Positions 2,189 to 44,396 of a DNA stretch of 64,000 nt are shown here, in pieces. The notes below the pieces were generated by a model. The model made no database searches. It worked only from the letters and a program-made list of their open reading frames with translations, and had not been told where the DNA came from. Both the position numbers and the translations under genes were made by a program. Each line of letters opens with the position of its first letter. The first letter of the stretch is position 1. The DNA is taken from the sequence record PP328843.1. The stretch is one strand, 5' to 3'. Source of the DNA: Escherichia phage 215Ecol030PP.

Positions 2189-2392
2189 TTAATTCATATT
2201 ACGCTTAATAACTTCAGCAACTTCTAGTAGTTCATCTTTAGTTGCAGTGTCGGATTGAATTTTATCTCTAATATCTTTAAAGCGGTTTTTAAATTCTTCG
2301 GCTTCTCCCATATCGAAAAAGCGTTGAATGATTCTATATTCTCGATGAACTGCTTTATCAAAAAGTTCTAAATTTACTTTATATGATTTCAT
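2189..2392 (-). CDS. small hypothetical protein upstream of rIIA (rIIA.1 position), 67 aa
   Basis: ATG at 2390-2392; tightly packed upstream of rIIA; early promoter immediately upstream. Confidence 0.6.
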
Positions 2393-2417
2393 TTCAATAT
2401 CCTCATTTGCCCAATTA

Positions 2418-2447
2418 ATTATACCACATCCTTGTGGTAAAGTAAAC
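2418..2447 (-). promoter_or_regulatory. T4-type early promoter (sigma70-like, extended -10 TGgTATAAT, -35 GTTTAC) for rIIA.1-rIIA
   Basis: Minus strand reads GTTTAC-15nt-TGGTATAAT; plus-strand attata at 2418-2423 and gtaaac at 2442-2447; near-identical copy at 50188-50217. Confidence 0.55.
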
Positions 2448-2979
2448 TACTGGCTCATCCATTCTTTACGAAGGTCAGCGTTATCTCCCATGAGCATTTC
2501 AAAAAGCTCTTTCCAGTTCTCAGGAAGTTTAACAACATCATATACTGGGTTTTGAATCATCTCACGATATTCAGATTTTTCCAAAGAGCCAAGTCCCTTA
2601 ATATAACGGATGCTATGTTTAGGTAGAGTATCTTTAGCACTCTCATATTCAGCGACTGTATAAAACCATTTTTGAGTTTTGCCAATTTGTGCAATAATTA
2701 CAGGCGTTTTAACAAAGCGAATACGTCCTTGTTCAAACAATTCTGGCCAATTACTAAAAAATCCGAGCAGAGAAGGATAAATAGAACCTAATCCAATAAT
2801 CTCTTAATTATGAGGTATTTCTATGGATAGCCCGAAGGCTATCCATCGTGATCTGCGTCTGTCATAATAGCGACATTCGCATAGTTCATTGAAGAGGATT
2901 TAATAGAACGACGAACATTGTTCTGCAATTTATATTTTTTCATATCAACGCTAGAAGAATCAATTTTTACAAATTTCAT
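2447..2979 (-). CDS. 60: DNA topoisomerase II medium subunit gp60, 160 aa, translated with a 50-nt ribosomal bypass: join(2979..2842, 2791..2447) on minus strand
   Basis: N-terminal 46 codons MKFVKIDSSSVDMKKYKLQNNVRRSIKSSSMNYANVAIMTDADHDG end at GGA (2842-2844) followed by UAG (2839-2841); coding resumes after landing GGA (2792-2794) with LGSIYPSLLGFFSNWPELFEQGRIRF...; 46+114 codons = 160 aa. Confidence 0.9.
2792..2841 (-). other. 50-nt untranslated coding gap of gene 60 (programmed translational bypass / ribosome hopping element)
   Basis: Exactly 50 nt between take-off GGA and resume codon UUA, beginning UAG and ending with matching landing GGA; take-off hairpin GGAUAGCC-UUCG-GGCUAUCC spans 2825-2844. 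Confidence 0.9.
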
Positions 2980-3778
2980 TATACACCTCATAGAACTTTT
3001 CATCAGGAATCCAACCGCGTTTAAATTCATTAAATGCTCGGCCGAATAATTTTGAATTCACAGTTATATTATTAACTGATTTCCATTTAGCAACTCCTGT
3101 TCGTTTATAATGATCGGGGTCATATTTCGTGACGTACCATTCATATAAATTTGGTATTAATTTTACAGCCTCTGGATTTGTCGCTGATTTATTATACCAT
3201 GGTTTCGCTTTTTCAAGTTCAGCTGCTTTTGCAGTAGCAGCAACAGTATTTCCAATACCAACTAATTTTTCAGCTTTAATGCGTGGATCATTAACATGAA
3301 GACGAAAAACTTCGCCCTTTTCATTTTTAAAGCATGTCATGCCTTTAATTCCAGGAAGCTTAACACCTTTATTAACACCGCACCATTCCTTTGGGTTAAA
3401 TGATCCTTTAATTAATAAGGCGCATTTACCCGATTTAATACTTCTCATTAAAACTTTATCTTTCATAAAGTTTTTTGACCATTCAGATACTGCTCTTTGA
3501 TGGTAAATTCTAGCGATTTCATATAATTTACTAGAACGTAAATATTTTTCAGTGTTTAACATTCTATTCATCGCATATGCCATTTCACGATTACGATGAA
3601 TTTTATATAGTAGAAAATGTGCTAAAAAGTGTTCACGAAAAGTCAGTTTCACCAAATTTTCTTTATCATCAGAACCTCCCATTGATCTTGGAAGGATATG
3701 ATGAATTTCACCCTTAAATTTAGAAACGCGGGTTTTACCCCGCACTATTAAGTCATTATAGATTTTTTCGTAATTCAC
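2960..3778 (-). CDS. mobA: MobA HNH homing endonuclease, 272 aa, inserted between topoisomerase genes 39 and 60
   Basis: HNH motif HHILPRSMGGSDDKENLVKLTFREHFLAHF; N-terminus MNYEKIYN matches the MNY..IY N-termini of the two other Mob-type ORFs in the window; apparent GTG start at 3776-3778; 3' end overlaps gene 60 start by about 20 nt. Confidence 0.85.
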   Translation of the reverse strand: MNYEKIYNDLIVRGKTRVSKFKGEIHHILPRSMGGSDDKENLVKLTFREHFLAHFLLYKIHRNREMAYAMNRMLNTEKYLRSSKLYEIARIYHQRAVSEWSKNFMKDKVLMRSIKSGKCALLIKGSFNPKEWCGVNKGVKLPGIKGMTCFKNEKGEVFRLHVNDPRIKAEKLVGIGNTVAATAKAAELEKAKPWYNKSATNPEAVKLIPNLYEWYVTKYDPDHYKRTGVAKWKSVNNITVNSKLFGRAFNEFKRGWIPDEKFYEVYNEICKN

Positions 3779-5306
3779 CTACTGTTATCCATTTACCATT
3801 AATCTGTACTTCATCATTTTCATTTACGATAATTGTATCGCCATTTAGTTCGAAAGTAAACCACTCGCCATCTTCTTTTTCTTCAAACGCTTTTTCACCA
3901 AGAACTAATCCAGTGATTGCGCAAATATCAAACAGTTCTTTGTTTTTAAGCATATCAGCATATGACATACCCCAACTGTTGAGAACTTTACCACGCAATG
4001 GATAACCACCATGAAGTTCTTTATCACGAACATCAATAAGATATCCGATAGCCGAATCACCCTCAGTCAAGAAAAGAGTAGTGTCAGCATCTTTACCACA
4101 AAGATTCGCTTTAATATGTTTATGAACCTTAGCTTTAGAAGCCTTTTTAGCCGCTTTAGTTTCTGCTGCTTTTTCTGCCGCCAATTTACGAGCTAATGCT
4201 GCTTCAATAATCGGCATTAAAATTGCTTCATTATTTAGAATAGCACGTGAAATCTTTTTAGCATCAAGTTGAATATGACTACGGATTTCACCAAATGGAG
4301 AAGTCAAACGCTCTTTAGTTTGAGAATCAAATCGCATGTTTTTCATATCACGAACAAACATAACGATAGTCAAACATTCTTTGACACGCGCTTTAGTTAC
4401 ATCAATTTTGAATTTACGTTTGATTTGTGGAATAAGGTCTTCACAAATATCATCCATAACGCAGTCAATGTGATGGCCACCATTCTTAGTGTGAATGTTA
4501 TTCACATAAGTTAATTGACGAAAACCATCCGGTGAACGACCAACCGCAATAGAACAATTTTCTTGTTCTTGAACGATAGCATGTTCATCATACTGTCGTG
4601 CATATTTCTTAAAATTGCCCTGAACCTTTTTACCATTAAAGGTAAATTGAATATCAGGATAAACTACTGCAAGTGTCTGGAGACGATCCAGTGTAATGTC
4701 AAGATAAACTTGGGACAGCTCATTAGTTTCAAATGACATAAAATCTGGAATGAAAGTAACACGAGTTCCTTTCCATTTTCCAGGAATAGTTTCCCAGGAT
4801 TTATTTTCCATGCCATTTGAACAACGAACTACAATATTATTTTGACCATCGCCAGTTTCACCAACAAACATCACAGAAAAAATGTTTGTCAAACTAGAAC
4901 CAACACCATTCATACCGCCAGTGACGCGTTCTTTATCATCACCGAAGTTACCACCTGCTTTTGGAATAGTCCATGCAGCAACAGGACCAGGAATTTCTTC
5001 ACCGGTAGGTGTTTTAACCATCGCCTGTGGAATACCACGACCGTTATCTTCAACTGTTACTTGATTGTTTTTAATAGTAACATTAATTTTATTTGCGAAT
5101 TTAAACTTAGTACGAATACCTTCATCTACTGAGTTATCGATAATTTCATCAATAAGCTTAACAAGACCAGGTACATACTGAACACTTTCCCATTTACCAA
5201 ACAGAAAGCGCTCATGCATTTCATTAGCAGAAGAGCCAATGTACATGCCGCTACGCTTTTTGATATGTTCAATATCGCTCAGAATTTTAATTTCATTCTT
5301 AATCAT
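3756..5306 (-). CDS. 39: DNA topoisomerase II large (ATPase, GyrB-like) subunit gp39, 516 aa
   Basis: GHKL ATPase and Toprim-type motifs (EDNGRGIP, GGxNGVGSS); ATG at 5304-5306 (the ORF track starts one codon upstream at a GTG). Confidence 0.95.
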   Translation of the reverse strand: MIKNEIKILSDIEHIKKRSGMYIGSSANEMHERFLFGKWESVQYVPGLVKLIDEIIDNSVDEGIRTKFKFANKINVTIKNNQVTVEDNGRGIPQAMVKTPTGEEIPGPVAAWTIPKAGGNFGDDKERVTGGMNGVGSSLTNIFSVMFVGETGDGQNNIVVRCSNGMENKSWETIPGKWKGTRVTFIPDFMSFETNELSQVYLDITLDRLQTLAVVYPDIQFTFNGKKVQGNFKKYARQYDEHAIVQEQENCSIAVGRSPDGFRQLTYVNNIHTKNGGHHIDCVMDDICEDLIPQIKRKFKIDVTKARVKECLTIVMFVRDMKNMRFDSQTKERLTSPFGEIRSHIQLDAKKISRAILNNEAILMPIIEAALARKLAAEKAAETKAAKKASKAKVHKHIKANLCGKDADTTLFLTEGDSAIGYLIDVRDKELHGGYPLRGKVLNSWGMSYADMLKNKELFDICAITGLVLGEKAFEEKEDGEWFTFELNGDTIIVNENDEVQINGKWITVGELRKNL

Positions 5307-5350
5307 CACTTATCCTCGTTTGGTTTCGGGAATATTATACTCCGGTAATC

Positions 5351-5373
5351 ATAAAGCTAAAGGCCCGAAGGCC
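5351..5373 (-). terminator. intrinsic terminator-like hairpin GGCC-UUCG-GGCC followed by U-rich tract
   Basis: Plus strand ggcccgaaggcc at 5362-5373 directly downstream of the 39.1 stop codon on the minus strand. Confidence 0.45.
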
Positions 5374-5375
5374 TT

Positions 5376-5636
5376 TTATTTAAAACGAATAGTTGAATCC
5401 TTAAAGAACAGCCCAGAACATACTGTTCCTTCTACTTTCTGCCCGGTAGGTCCAATAGCACGAAATCCAGTATGTTGGAAATCATTTTCAGAGCAACCGA
5501 GCCAGTTATATCCAGTGATTTCAATATTAGTAAAACCGCTTGAAGACAAAACTTTGGTTGCATTATCAGCATCAGTACATCCTATTAAAGACACTGCTAA
5601 TACTAATGCTGCAATAGAACGATTAACATATTTCAT
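5376..5636 (-). CDS. putative lipoprotein (39.1 position), 86 aa
   Basis: Signal peptide with lipobox-like LIGC; ATG at 5634-5636. Confidence 0.6.
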   Translation of the reverse strand: MKYVNRSIAALVLAVSLIGCTDADNATKVLSSSGFTNIEITGYNWLGCSENDFQHTGFRAIGPTGQKVEGTVCSGLFFKDSTIRFK

Positions 5637-38484: not shown

Positions 38485-39279
38485 CTACGAATAGGCCCAA
38501 ACATATCCATAAGCAATTTTGCTTTTTCCAGATATGCACTTTTTAATATTAGACATGCATCCTTTAACGGATACAGCTGCGTCTTTAATTTTAGGAAATA
38601 CTCGTAATAATTTTCCAGTAGTATCATATTGAAATACTGGCACATTTCTTTTCTGAGTTATCCCACGTTTAGATTTAGACATTTTTTGTTTAGTTGCATT
38701 AGACATCCTAGAGGGCTTTCCTATGTTATCAGAATAATAATATTTCCATTGAAATCCTCCAGCGGTTTTCCTTTTCCCATCTACACATTGTTTAATTGAA
38801 CTTGAACAGCTATATGACATATCTTCTGCAGCATCTGTAATACATCTATATTTGCGAATAAAATTTCCATTTAAATCATATTGATAAATTGGTTTTCCAG
38901 CATTTCGTCTAGCGTTAGACATGTATTTTTTATTATCATCATCTTTCCAGAACTCTTTCATGCCTTCCGATATTGAGGAAGATACGGCTGTTTTAATCCA
39001 TCCATACATTTTATTATTTAGTCTTGTTCCGTCAGAACTATAACACATCATACGAATAGCTAAAGCCAATTTAGGAAGTCTATAAATTTTAAATAATAAT
39101 AAATGCGCGGTAAAATGTTCTTCTGGTGTCAAAAGAACTAAATTAGTTTTATCATCTGTACCACCCATACATCTAGGAATTATATGATGAGTTTCAGTAT
39201 AGTATGTCAAAAGACTTTTATCATTGCCTCTGTTTAGTCCTTTTTCGATCAGTAAATTATATATGTTTAAATAATTCAT
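38485..39279 (-). CDS. mobB: MobB-like HNH homing endonuclease, 264 aa
   Basis: HNH motif THHIIPRCMGGTDDKTNLVLLTPEEHFTAH; N-terminus MNYLNIYN; free-standing next to agt. Confidence 0.78.
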   Translation of the reverse strand: MNYLNIYNLLIEKGLNRGNDKSLLTYYTETHHIIPRCMGGTDDKTNLVLLTPEEHFTAHLLLFKIYRLPKLALAIRMMCYSSDGTRLNNKMYGWIKTAVSSSISEGMKEFWKDDDNKKYMSNARRNAGKPIYQYDLNGNFIRKYRCITDAAEDMSYSCSSSIKQCVDGKRKTAGGFQWKYYYSDNIGKPSRMSNATKQKMSKSKRGITQKRNVPVFQYDTTGKLLRVFPKIKDAAVSVKGCMSNIKKCISGKSKIAYGYVWAYS

Positions 39280-43303: not shown

Positions 43304-43774
43304 TTAATCATGTTTCCACACCCCATCGGTATTTGACCAAAGTCGCTGATTATCTGATCCTCGCCACAACTTTTTGGTCGGAAGATTTTTCTCATACTTC
43401 CCATCAATAATAACATCAACATATTTAAGCATTTCTAGTTGTTTAATATCTTCAAACTTATATCCTGTCCACAACCAGATATCTTTCTTCGGAAATCTTG
43501 CTTTAACCCAAGAAACTAAATTTGAAATCTCTTCTCGGTTCTGTGGATAAAGTGGGTCACCACCGGTTAAGGTAAGGCCTTGGATATACGATTTGCTTAA
43601 ATGGGACGCAAGTTCTTTAACGGTATTCATAGTGAATAACTGTCCGTTACGAGCATTCCAAGTACTACGATTATAACAACCTTCGCATTTATGCAAACAT
43701 CCAGTGACGAAGAGAACGACCCTGCATCCAGGACCATTAACAAAGCAGCACGGGTATATTCTATCATAATTCAT
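43304..43774 (-). CDS. nrdG: anaerobic ribonucleotide reductase activating protein NrdG (radical SAM), 156 aa
   Basis: Radical SAM CxxxCxxC (CLHKCEGC); ATG at 43772-43774 (track ORF extends upstream into mobC). Confidence 0.88.
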   Translation of the reverse strand: MNYDRIYPCCFVNGPGCRVVLFVTGCLHKCEGCYNRSTWNARNGQLFTMNTVKELASHLSKSYIQGLTLTGGDPLYPQNREEISNLVSWVKARFPKKDIWLWTGYKFEDIKQLEMLKYVDVIIDGKYEKNLPTKKLWRGSDNQRLWSNTDGVWKHD

Positions 43775-44396
43775 CTTTATATTTCCAAGTATATCCCTTA
43801 TGAATAGATTGAATTCCTTTGCAACATTTATAAACAGCAGAATGAAAAAATCCTGCATTTCTTATTTCAGTTGCTCCAGTTAGTTCTATTGTATTTCCGT
43901 CTGGTGAATAGCCAATAACCGTTTTGGTGTTAAAGCGATTTCTAGAACTATTTTTGATATGCTCTTTATGACTAGTAGACAAAGTTCTTCCTGTTAGCCC
44001 ATCAGATATCCTTTTTCCAAAATCATCAGGAAGAGTTACTTTAGACCTAGCTATGCTCATTAGCTTCTTAGTTTTATCGCTTCTTTTTGCGCCACGCTGA
44101 TTTTCAAATTTCTTAGCTTTTGCATACGCGTATTGTGAAGAAGTAACTTTTCTATGCTTACTATTACTCATTATCCAATATGCATCATACATCTTTCCAC
44201 CATATATTTTAGCCAATAAATGGTGAGCAGTATAGTGGGCCTTATAAGTTAAAAATACTAAGTTGTCTAAATCATCTGAACCACCCATACTTCTTGGAAT
44301 TATATGATGAAGTTCATACCCGGCTTTAGTTTGACGGGGCTTAGATGGGTGTTCAGCAGAATTAACTAGATTTGAATAGATTCTGTCATAATTCAT
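43764..44396 (-). CDS. mobC: MobC-like HNH homing endonuclease, 210 aa
   Basis: HNH motif LHHIIPRSMGGSDDLDNLVFLTYKAHYTAH; N-terminus MNYDRIYS; inserted between nrdD and nrdG. Confidence 0.78.
   Translation of the reverse strand: MNYDRIYSNLVNSAEHPSKPRQTKAGYELHHIIPRSMGGSDDLDNLVFLTYKAHYTAHHLLAKIYGGKMYDAYWIMSNSKHRKVTSSQYAYAKAKKFENQRGAKRSDKTKKLMSIARSKVTLPDDFGKRISDGLTGRTLSTSHKEHIKNSSRNRFNTKTVIGYSPDGNTIELTGATEIRNAGFFHSAVYKCCKGIQSIHKGYTWKYKDEL

Follow-up and report, generated by a model that had tools for sequence, protein, structure and literature searches.

How did the topoisomerase II large-subunit gene of Escherichia phage 215Ecol030PP come to lie in two pieces with an endonuclease gene between them, and does the 50-nt untranslated gap in its second piece belong to the same event? 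We examined this locus within a 64,000-nt stretch of the genome (PP328843.1), referred to here as the window. Programmed translational bypassing has its classic example in the T4 gene 60 hop, and the T4 mobA/gene 60 bypass cassette was reportedly described by Bonocora, Zeng, Abel & Shub in 2011. An earlier note on this DNA had read mobA and the 50-nt element as one mobile cassette that split an ancestral single gene. We conclude with high confidence that this locus holds the MobA mobile element known from T4-type phages, a 1106-bp selfish cassette in the TOPRIM-coding part of the large-subunit gene. The mobA-bypass cassette is real, was correctly read in that note and is already published (Edgell 2010; Manning & Atkins 2022; also Bonocora 2011).

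The gene 39-mobA-gene 60 arrangement (Table 1) coincides with the phage T4T annotation, coordinate for coordinate. As claimed earlier, an intact gene for a 272-aa HNH protein lies between gene 39 and gene 60, and its last codons overlap the gene 60 start, by 20 nt. At its other end, mobA shares 23 nt with the 3' end of gene 39, an overlap absent from the earlier note. Identity to T4 is 97.9% across this locus and 97% in gene 39, and the rest of the window is ~95-96% identical to its nearest record; judged by these identities, the source phage is a Tequatrovirus distinct from T4.

The GTG start proposed for mobA is borne out by several observations. An in-frame TAG lies directly upstream, so that the ORF cannot begin further 5'; the N-terminus of MobA aligns residue for residue with those of MobB and MobC; the MobA orthologues of three other phage genera begin at the identical MNY, that of the Proteus phage likewise with GTG; the T4T annotation uses the same GTG; and GUG is the predicted mobA start (Edgell et al. 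2010). The encoded protein differs from T4T MobA by a single residue change, A169T (271/272, 99.6% identity).

MobA had also been said to share its MNY..IY N-terminus and HNH core with the products of two other ORFs in the window, at 38485-39279 and 43764-44396, which synteny with T4T identifies as mobB (beside a-gt) and mobC (in the nrdG/nrdD interval). This resemblance holds: M1, N2, Y3, I6, Y7, H26, H27, N41, H50 and H54 are invariant in a three-way alignment, and all three proteins match phrog_655 'homing endonuclease' (MobA, 2.5e-57; MobB, 1.6e-52; MobC, 3.9e-43). The catalytic/metal-binding His...Asn...His motif of MobA is conserved in four orthologues too. Against Pfam HNH (PF01844), MobA scores 20.1 bits versus a curated gathering cut-off of 21.4, which MobB (22.6) and MobC (26.9) exceed. 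A PDB sequence search returned a local match to the HNH domain of the group II intron maturase 6me0 (E 0.0095) and no solved MobA relative beyond this short HNH motif. Pfam finds NUMOD1 repeats in the C-terminal region of MobB and detects none in MobA.

The insertion borders were defined, along the lines of a check proposed in the earlier note, by alignment against relatives with an unsplit gene 39 (phages G8, T6, FL12 and 235Ecol030PP; unsplit product 605 aa). We set them by pairwise blastn; a global MAFFT alignment of split and unsplit genes placed the 1-kb gap wrongly at the end. Homology to the unsplit gene stops cleanly after coding nt 1418 (window 3889), and high identity resumes 1106 nt on, so that the net increase is 1042 nt, as is also calculated from match spans of 1854 and 812 nt. 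Upstream of the insertion, nt 1-1418 of gene 39 are 97-99.4% identical to unsplit gene 39 and encode the Pfam matches HATPase_c and DNA_gyraseB; downstream, the ancestral part of gene 60 corresponds to nt 1483-1818 of the unsplit gene, at 94% identity. When joined, the two products match T4 gp39-gp60 in PDB 8yo3 (E 1e-102). Over 46 nt, the recoded target copy within the element agrees with the unsplit gene at only 76-78% of nucleotides, versus 94-98% in the flanks. The element exceeds mobA and the 50-nt gap, taking in 43 gene 39 codons, 30 gene 60 codons and the recoded 16-codon target copy as well.

Table 1 Features of the gene 39-mobA-gene 60 locus (window coordinates)
Feature	Position	Strand	Details
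Gene 39 (whole)	3756-5306	minus	516 aa, ATG at 5306 (ORF listing)
Gene 39, ancestral part	3889-5306	minus	Codons 1-472: GHKL ATPase, GyrB transducer domain, TOPRIM start
MobA element	2783-3888	minus	1106 nt replacing 64 nt (nt 1419-1482 of unsplit gene)
gp39 C-terminal extension, element-encoded	3759-3888	minus	43 codons FEEKEDGEWFTFELNGDTIIVNENDEVQINGKWITVGELRKNL; stop 3756-3758
mobA	2960-3778	minus	272 codons; GTG 3778-3776, stop 2960-2962 (ORF listing)
HNH core of MobA	~3617-3709	minus	Residues 24-54
Gene 60	2842-2979 + 2447-2791	minus	ATG at 2979; 50-nt gap 2792-2841 between the parts
Gene 60 Shine-Dalgarno GAGG	2986-2989	minus	
gp60 N-terminal extension, element-encoded, unique	2890-2979	minus	30 codons MKFVKIDSSSVDMKKYKLQNNVRRSIKSSS; includes nascent-peptide bypass signal
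Recoded homologous region	2842-2889	minus	16 codons MNYANVAIMTDADHDG in place of parental target stretch
Equivalent of reported MobA nick site	inside 2842-2889	minus	Position from literature
5' stem-loop	~2854-2881	minus	RNA fold
Take-off codon GGA (codon 46)	2842-2844	minus	Closes recoded region
Take-off hairpin, UUCG loop	2823-2846	minus	RNA fold
Untranslated coding gap, 50 nt	2792-2841	minus	
UAG stop after take-off	2839-2841	minus	
GAG mini-SD	2801-2803	minus	6 nt ahead of landing GGA
Landing GGA	2792-2794	minus	
Final 9 nt of element past gap	2783-2791	minus	Recoded: TTAGGTTCT vs CTAGGAAGC in unsplit gene
Gene 60, ancestral part	2447-2782	minus	TOPRIM remainder and former large-subunit C-terminus; stop 2447-2449

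This anatomy is that of the published MobA element, described as 1097-1106 nt with 64 nt deleted, a 43-aa C-terminal extension, a 30-aa N-terminal extension and a 16-aa homologous region (Manning & Atkins 2022). Specifically, such elements sit in the TOPRIM-coding part at nt 1399-1419 (here after 1418) and replace 55-75 nt with 1097-1106 nt (here 64 with 1106). They give the upstream ORF an in-frame C-terminal extension of ~44 aa (here 43) and the downstream one a head of ~30 aa plus a homologous region of ~15 aa with 67-81% DNA identity (here 30 and 16 aa, 76-78%), and they carry a MobA ORF of 269-279 aa (here 272) in out-of-frame overlap with both neighbours (Manning & Atkins 2022). The T4 cassette is classed there as a 'clade 1' MobA element (bioRxiv 10.1101/2022.08.31.505936), and the 'additional 9 nt in clade 1' agree with the 9 nt that end the present element.

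The bypass signals are likewise complete, with matched GGA codons, a stop codon, a tetraloop stem-loop, a mini-SD 6 nt before landing and the nascent-peptide residues, as listed for such elements, in which the mini-SD lies 5-7 nt before landing (Manning & Atkins 2022). The first 46 residues of gp60 are those of T4 gp60, of PDB 8yo3 and of the 46-aa nascent chain in PDB 5np6. The take-off stem consists of 10 bp with a UUCG loop, its 8-bp core folding at -14.9 kcal/mol. Compared with T4, the 50-nt gap has one difference: at position 2825 the mRNA has C in place of U, so that the lowest pair of the take-off stem is G-C and no longer G.U. Phages G50 and F26 share this variant. From the near-identity to T4, where bypass has been experimentally shown, we infer that ribosomes would also make full-length gp60 in the source phage and that the G-C hairpin variant is probably active. 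For annotation, gene 60 should be entered as one CDS joined over the 50-nt gap, and mobA as an intact gene with a GTG start.

The T4 late-promoter motif TATAAATA has no occurrence anywhere in 2300-5500, and a scan for sigma-70-type promoters returned fewer sites than in shuffled sequences, an outcome that agrees with the published view of mobA as a promoter-less cassette (Edgell et al. 2010). One sigma-70-type site, at 3832-3860 on the minus strand and ~50 nt upstream of mobA, was not taken as evidence.

On the reading we favour, MobA would be translated at a low level from the gene 39 transcript, its GTG overlapping the end of gene 39, and as an HNH enzyme would nick gene 39 of a co-infecting phage in which the gene is uninterrupted and the element absent. 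Recombinational repair would then copy the cassette, plus some flanking DNA, into the cut genome. The 43-aa tail on gp39 and the 30-aa head, with its own ribosome-binding site, on gp60 would let the two halves reassemble with gp52; in published T4/T6 topoisomerase II structures the extra ~70 aa form a TOPRIM pendant without effect on activity. The recoded target copy and the 50-nt insert ~20 nt from the nick site would destroy the MobA recognition site, leaving the carrier genome immune to its own nuclease. The nascent peptide, the UAG, the UUCG hairpin and the GAG mini-SD would drive ribosomes to hop from the GGA at codon 46 over the 50 nt to the landing GGA, so that intact gp60 would be made. 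The link to MobA explains the odd bypass sequence, which makes a selfish element immune to the nuclease that it encodes. Published work reports nicking by MobA, homing in T4 x T2 crosses and, experimentally, protection by the gap against MobA nicking; the present MobA, with its A169T change, is probably active too.

We think there is only a small chance that the gap is instead the remnant of a degenerate self-splicing intron, or a regulatory device, with immunity to MobA not its sole or main role. As a regulator, it might set the gp60:gp39 ratio or yield a functional 46-aa peptide. Published work has suggested that it derives from an intron, the reported efficiency of bypass is only ~50%, and other functions are not excluded by the preprint authors (Manning & Atkins 2022). 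However, no significant Rfam family, intron or other, is present in 2300-5500, the gap occurs only together with a MobA-type element (Manning & Atkins 2022), and experiments are reported in which the gap protects from MobA nicking. Pfam also detects no Hint/intein domain in gp39 or MobA; the locus is not that of a group I intron or intein carrier, and the gene is genuinely split into two ORFs.

The distribution of the cassette bears on its mobility. It is present in 41 of 671 matching phage records and is 99.5-99.9% identical among most carriers. In pairwise comparisons with other carriers, it shows 2-5 differences per 1097 nt, versus 29-45 per 1155 nt in the adjacent part of gene 39 (Fisher p 1.5e-6 to 1.8e-11); between carriers, it is 7-22 times less diverged than the adjacent DNA. 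The distal part of gene 39 (4152-5306) has 1 difference in 1155 nt from the unsplit gene of 235Ecol030PP, and the best 60 records for this flank are all unsplit. Since 235Ecol030PP is absent among the best 12 records listed for the further 25 kb at 5400-30000, its status as closest relative is limited to gene 39. Donor-like sites run from 3889 to at least 4011, and the switch to an unsplit-type backbone falls within ~120-260 bp of the cassette on the gene 39 side. The cassette/flank contrast is a footprint of horizontal gain, and the low cassette divergence and the near-identical flank from an unsplit phage fit mobility. Together with the insertion borders, they support the earlier proposal that mobA and the 50-nt element form one cassette that split an ancestral gene. 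No observation made at the locus runs counter to this explanation.

T-even genomes are generally and highly mosaic, so that this discordance shows horizontal exchange and does not by itself identify MobA as the cause. The cassette could then be a fixed, domesticated relic, with an inactive or immobile MobA, exchanged by ordinary homologous recombination between co-infecting T-even phages, a reading that we regard as improbable. A laboratory T4 mutant with a truncated mobA stays viable according to the literature, other clades have reportedly lost the endonuclease while keeping the bypass (Manning & Atkins 2022), and the weak ribosome-binding site and GTG start of mobA imply low expression. Yet the ORF is intact and one residue away from T4T MobA, its catalytic residues are conserved, and homing activity is reported for T4-type MobA. 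The donor-like sequence also lies exactly around the cassette and gives way to unsplit-type backbone over a short distance, which is the pattern of homing with co-conversion.

An ancestral split, with unsplit gene 39 arising by cassette loss and fusion, is scarcely credible: the patchy distribution alone could stem from repeated loss, and Aeromonas phages with secondary fusions that keep the added tails are reported (Manning & Atkins 2022), but the unsplit genes here bear no trace of such tails, their site holds a different 64 nt (76-78% identical to the cassette copy) so that deletion could not recreate it, type IIA topoisomerases are generally single-chain here (T6, eukaryotic topo II), the cassette has reportedly been transferred into T2 by experiment, and a cassette far less diverged than its flanks is the opposite of the equal divergence and monophyletic carriers expected. 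The earlier note had held that relatives with the same split and neither mobA nor bypass would count against the cassette model. Such phages exist among the clades of Campylobacter and Aeromonas phages, where they are explained by secondary loss (Manning & Atkins 2022), so that their existence does not discriminate.

Among known systems, the MobA element of this phage is closest to the T4 cassette, which shares the insertion after nt 1418, the 1106-nt length, the 64 nt replaced, the gp39 tail, the first 46 residues of gp60, a 99.6% identical MobA, the 23-nt and 20-nt overlaps, the GTG and a 50-nt gap one base off. Unlike T4, the window has U to C at 2825, A169T in MobA and a gene 39 flank of the 235Ecol030PP type, in a different Tequatrovirus genome. 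The elements of Proteus phage Pm5461, Salmonella phage S16 and Acinetobacter phage fHyAci03 resemble it in architecture, topoisomerase site, split gene and bypass, and in MobA proteins of 269-278 aa with an MNY..IY start; however, these MobA proteins are only 51-61% identical, those of S16 and fHyAci03 start with ATG, and some elements of this type use other take-off and landing codons according to the literature. MobE in nrdA of Aeromonas phage Aeh1 similarly splits an essential gene, with added tails that let the halves reassemble (Edgell 2010). The free-standing T4 MobB, MobC and MobE have the same HNH N-terminal nuclease domain (phrog_655), but other C-terminal DNA-binding regions, other targets and no translational bypass. 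I-TevI/II/III and I-HmuI, the last also an HNH nickase, likewise cleave or nick an empty allele that then undergoes recombinational repair (Edgell 2010), whereas RNA or protein splicing restores their host genes; here the gene stays split and the ribosome skips the insert. The window adds no new principle, but one more natural carrier, in which the take-off stem is a G-C variant and the recombination footprint between cassette and backbone is very clean. These could serve as material for studies of homing tracts in nature and of the sequence changes that bypassing tolerates.

On the gene 60 side, an 86-nt patch at 2658-2743 is identical to Mosigvirus-type gene 39. Clustered substitutions at 2629-2732 were considered as mutational damage and rejected as such, with 11 of 15 changed codons synonymous and the run identical to Mosigvirus-type sequence. 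It is conceivable, if rather unlikely, that the genome preserves a fresh natural homing event into an unsplit backbone of the 235Ecol030PP type, with co-conversion ending 120-260 bp from the cassette on the gene 39 side. In that case, the patch could have arisen in a cell infected by three phages, if repair of the break made by MobA switched templates. In more general terms, exchange between phage genera may be concentrated at the 3' end of gene 39, a hot spot driven by several Mob-type endonucleases.

The mobA open reading frame shares 23 nt with the end of gene 39 and 20 nt with the beginning of gene 60. Phage T4T is annotated identically, position for position, with a joined gene 60 CDS, an 819-nt mobA and gene 39; this confirms the earlier note, which had placed mobA between gene 39 and gene 60 with an overlap of about 20 nt at the gene 60 start.

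Gene layout of the split topoisomerase region, 2447-5306
Feature	Coordinates	Strand	Description
gene 39	3756..5306	minus	516 aa, ATG at 5306; Pfam HATPase_c and DNA_gyraseB
mobA ORF	2960..3778	minus	272 codons, GTG start
gene 60 part 1	2842..2979	minus	46 codons, ending in GGA, then UAG
gene 60 untranslated gap	2792..2841	minus	50 nt, ending in second GGA
gene 60 part 2	2447..2791	minus	

Insertion boundaries were set by pairwise blastn against unsplit gene 39 and junction sequences. Window 2447-4300 is matched by 671 phage records, only 41 of which contain the entire stretch; among the matches listed, nearly all others align as two adjacent pieces, spanning 812 nt versus 1854 nt. In phages G8, T6, FL12 and 235Ecol030PP, gene 39 is annotated as a single 605-aa gene. 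The window follows the unsplit gene at 97-99% identity as far as coding nt 1418 (window 3889), past which FEEKEDG...RKNL-stop takes the place of ENLNYHNIAIMTDADHDG-LGSIY in the unsplit gene. Identity returns at just 76-78% across 46 nt encoding NYANVAIMTDADHDG; after these come the 50-nt gap and 9 recoded nucleotides, and 94% identity to the unsplit gene is restored from window 2782 downward. Alignment with unsplit relatives, as proposed in the earlier note, therefore gives clean boundaries, with an element at 2783..3888 in which 1106 nt replace 64 nt (net gain 1042 nt). It supplies a 43-aa gp39 tail, mobA, a 30-aa gp60 head, a 16-aa recoded gp60 segment and the bypass. These figures equal those of the clade 1 MobA element, which is 1097-1106 nt long with 64 nt deleted, and which carries a 43-aa C-terminal extension, a 30-aa plus 16-aa N-terminal extension and 9 extra nt past the gap (Manning & Atkins 2022, bioRxiv 10.1101/2022.08.31.505936). 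The matching boundaries support the view that mobA and the 50-nt bypass form one insertion cassette, as in the T4 model. Cryo-EM of T4 and T6 topoisomerase II has shown that the added ~70 residues form a pendant on the TOPRIM domain that leaves activity unaffected and possibly aids assembly.

The bypass signals are present in the gene 60 mRNA, which reads GAU GGA UAG CCU UCG GGC UAU CCA UAG ... AAGAGAUUAUU GGA UUA at the gap. GGA is both take-off and landing codon, with UAG right after the first of the two; UUCG forms the loop of the take-off hairpin, and GAG lies 6 nt ahead of the landing codon. A 5' stem-loop is predicted too, and for the 141-nt region the predicted fold is more stable than for shuffled sequence (z = -2.4). 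Over its first 46 residues, KKYKLQNNVRRSIKSSS included, gp60 has the same sequence as in T4 and as the nascent chain of PDB 5np6; after joining, gp60 hits the T4 gp39-gp60 chain of PDB 8yo3 (E 1e-102). The gap differs from that of T4 only at window 2825 (mRNA U to C), a base common to phages G50 and F26. The first G of the take-off codon consequently pairs with C rather than U on the 3' arm of the stem, so that G-C replaces G.U. With this change, the energy of the 8-bp core stem goes from -12.2 (T4) to -14.9 kcal/mol (window), making the stem 2.7 kcal/mol more stable.

MobA matches phrog_655 'homing endonuclease' (E 2.5e-57), as do ORFs 38485..39279 and 43764..44396, which by synteny with T4T are mobB (beside a-gt) and mobC (between nrdG and nrdD). 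All three proteins have M1 N2 Y3 I6 Y7 and the motif H26 H27 ... N41 ... H50 ... H54 in common, so the Mob-type kinship first noticed from the sequence alone is borne out. Against Pfam HNH, MobA scores 20.1 bits, slightly below the curated cut-off of 21.4 that MobB and MobC reach, and a PDB sequence search with MobA matched only a short HNH motif in a group II intron maturase. A169T is the sole residue difference from T4T MobA. The GTG start, also suggested earlier, is upheld by an in-frame TAG immediately 5' of it, by an N-terminus alignable residue for residue with MobB and MobC, and by orthologues in Proteus phage Pm5461 (GTG), Salmonella phage S16 and Acinetobacter phage fHyAci03 (both ATG) that have the same MNY beginning. 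It also agrees with Edgell et al. (2010), who name mobA as the one free-standing T4 endonuclease gene with a predicted GUG start and describe it as a promoter-less cassette with a 23-bp overlap with gene 39. In line with the latter, no T4 late-promoter motif was found in 2300-5500, and a scan of the region for sigma-70-like promoters returned sites no more than expected by chance. Both mobB (264 aa, two NUMOD1 repeats) and mobC (210 aa) are intact, on the minus strand and in T4-syntenic positions; the mobC ORF is overlapped by an ATG-initiated ORF that extends nrdG upstream.

Across 2300-5500 the window is 97.9% identical to T4 and T4T, gap-free, and 98.1% identical to F26. By sequence comparison, its source is a Tequatrovirus related to T4 yet distinct from it, since outside the rIIA-gene 39 region, at 5400-30000, even the closest of the best phage records listed reaches only ~95-96%; the 2025 phage collection thus holds no near-identical representative. 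Several comparisons point to horizontal movement of the cassette in this genome. The cassette and its close flanks (2733-3848) differ from T4T at 4 of 1116 nt, versus 3% in gene 39 and 5% in the second part of gene 60. In all six pairs of four carriers (window, T4T, G50, F26), the cassette shows 2-5 differences in 1097 nt, whereas adjacent gene 39 (4152-5306) shows 29-45 in 1155 nt (Fisher p 1.5e-6 to 1.8e-11). That same part of gene 39 differs from unsplit 235Ecol030PP at just 1 of 1155 positions, and the best 60 database matches to flank 3889-5306 are all unsplit phages. At informative sites the window has the carrier-type base from 3889 up to 4011 at least, and the 235Ecol030PP-type base from 4152 onward, a switch of the kind expected from homing with a short co-conversion tract. 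Ordinary recombination among these very mosaic T-even genomes is another possible source of this pattern. Homing by MobA is described by Edgell et al. (2010) and Manning & Atkins (2022), both citing Bonocora et al. 2011, as nicking of an uninterrupted gene 39, for instance that of phage T2, after which the cassette is inherited at high frequency in mixed infection. By the same accounts, the carrier is protected from its own nuclease by the 50-nt insert, ~20 nt from the nick site, and not by the recoded polymorphisms, and ribosomal bypass of the insert is roughly 50% efficient.

The feature is thus real, lies at 2447-5306 and was interpreted correctly from the start; what lies here is the published T4 MobA/bypass cassette, nearly unchanged, in a Tequatrovirus other than T4, and the cassette reading is already textbook knowledge for T4-type phages. 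The earlier note had regarded a split without mobA or bypass as evidence against that reading, but this does not discriminate, because such relatives exist and are read as secondary loss (Manning & Atkins 2022). Laboratory T4 mutant clone T4_583L (MZ375356, 842-1306), in which mobA is internally truncated and the split and gap are kept, shows that, after insertion of the cassette, mobA is dispensable.

In the old T4 reference (AF158101 / NC_000866), mobA is listed as a pseudogene, accompanied by ORF 60.1 (gp60.1). Compared with T4T, AF158101.6 has 11 single-base insertions, mostly C, within ~210 nt at 1640-1857, which are absent from the window and from the resequenced T4 records aligned in the 2300-5500 comparison. 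They probably represent historical sequencing error rather than mobA decay, and the pseudogene status given to T4 mobA may be artefactual.

Within the 104 nt of 2629-2732, which belong to the ancestral portion of gene 60 (minus strand), the window departs from each Tequatrovirus compared at 15-16 positions; 11 of 15 changed codons are synonymous, and the best phage-collection match to window 2600-2760 is 91.9%. An IMG/VR contig, 98% identical to Mosigvirus-type phages, matches the window exactly over 86 nt (2658-2743) and is elsewhere just 74-84% identical to it. We interpret 2629-2743, which alters four gp60 residues (V82I, K85T, E87K, A101T) and lies 40-155 nt from the cassette boundary, as a small inter-genus recombination patch (micro-mosaic).

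FL12 carries a different Mob-type HNH gene (1618-2415, minus; MNYRKIY..., NUMOD3 motifs) directly after its unsplit gene 39. Over its last 328 nt, this gene 39 has just 83% identity with the window, suggestive of a second homing element whose target is the 3' end of gene 39. Near gene 39, Mosigvirus records a20, p000v and F27 have an insertion of ~781 nt annotated as a homing endonuclease, and the 3' end of gene 39 may be a recurrent homing-endonuclease target.
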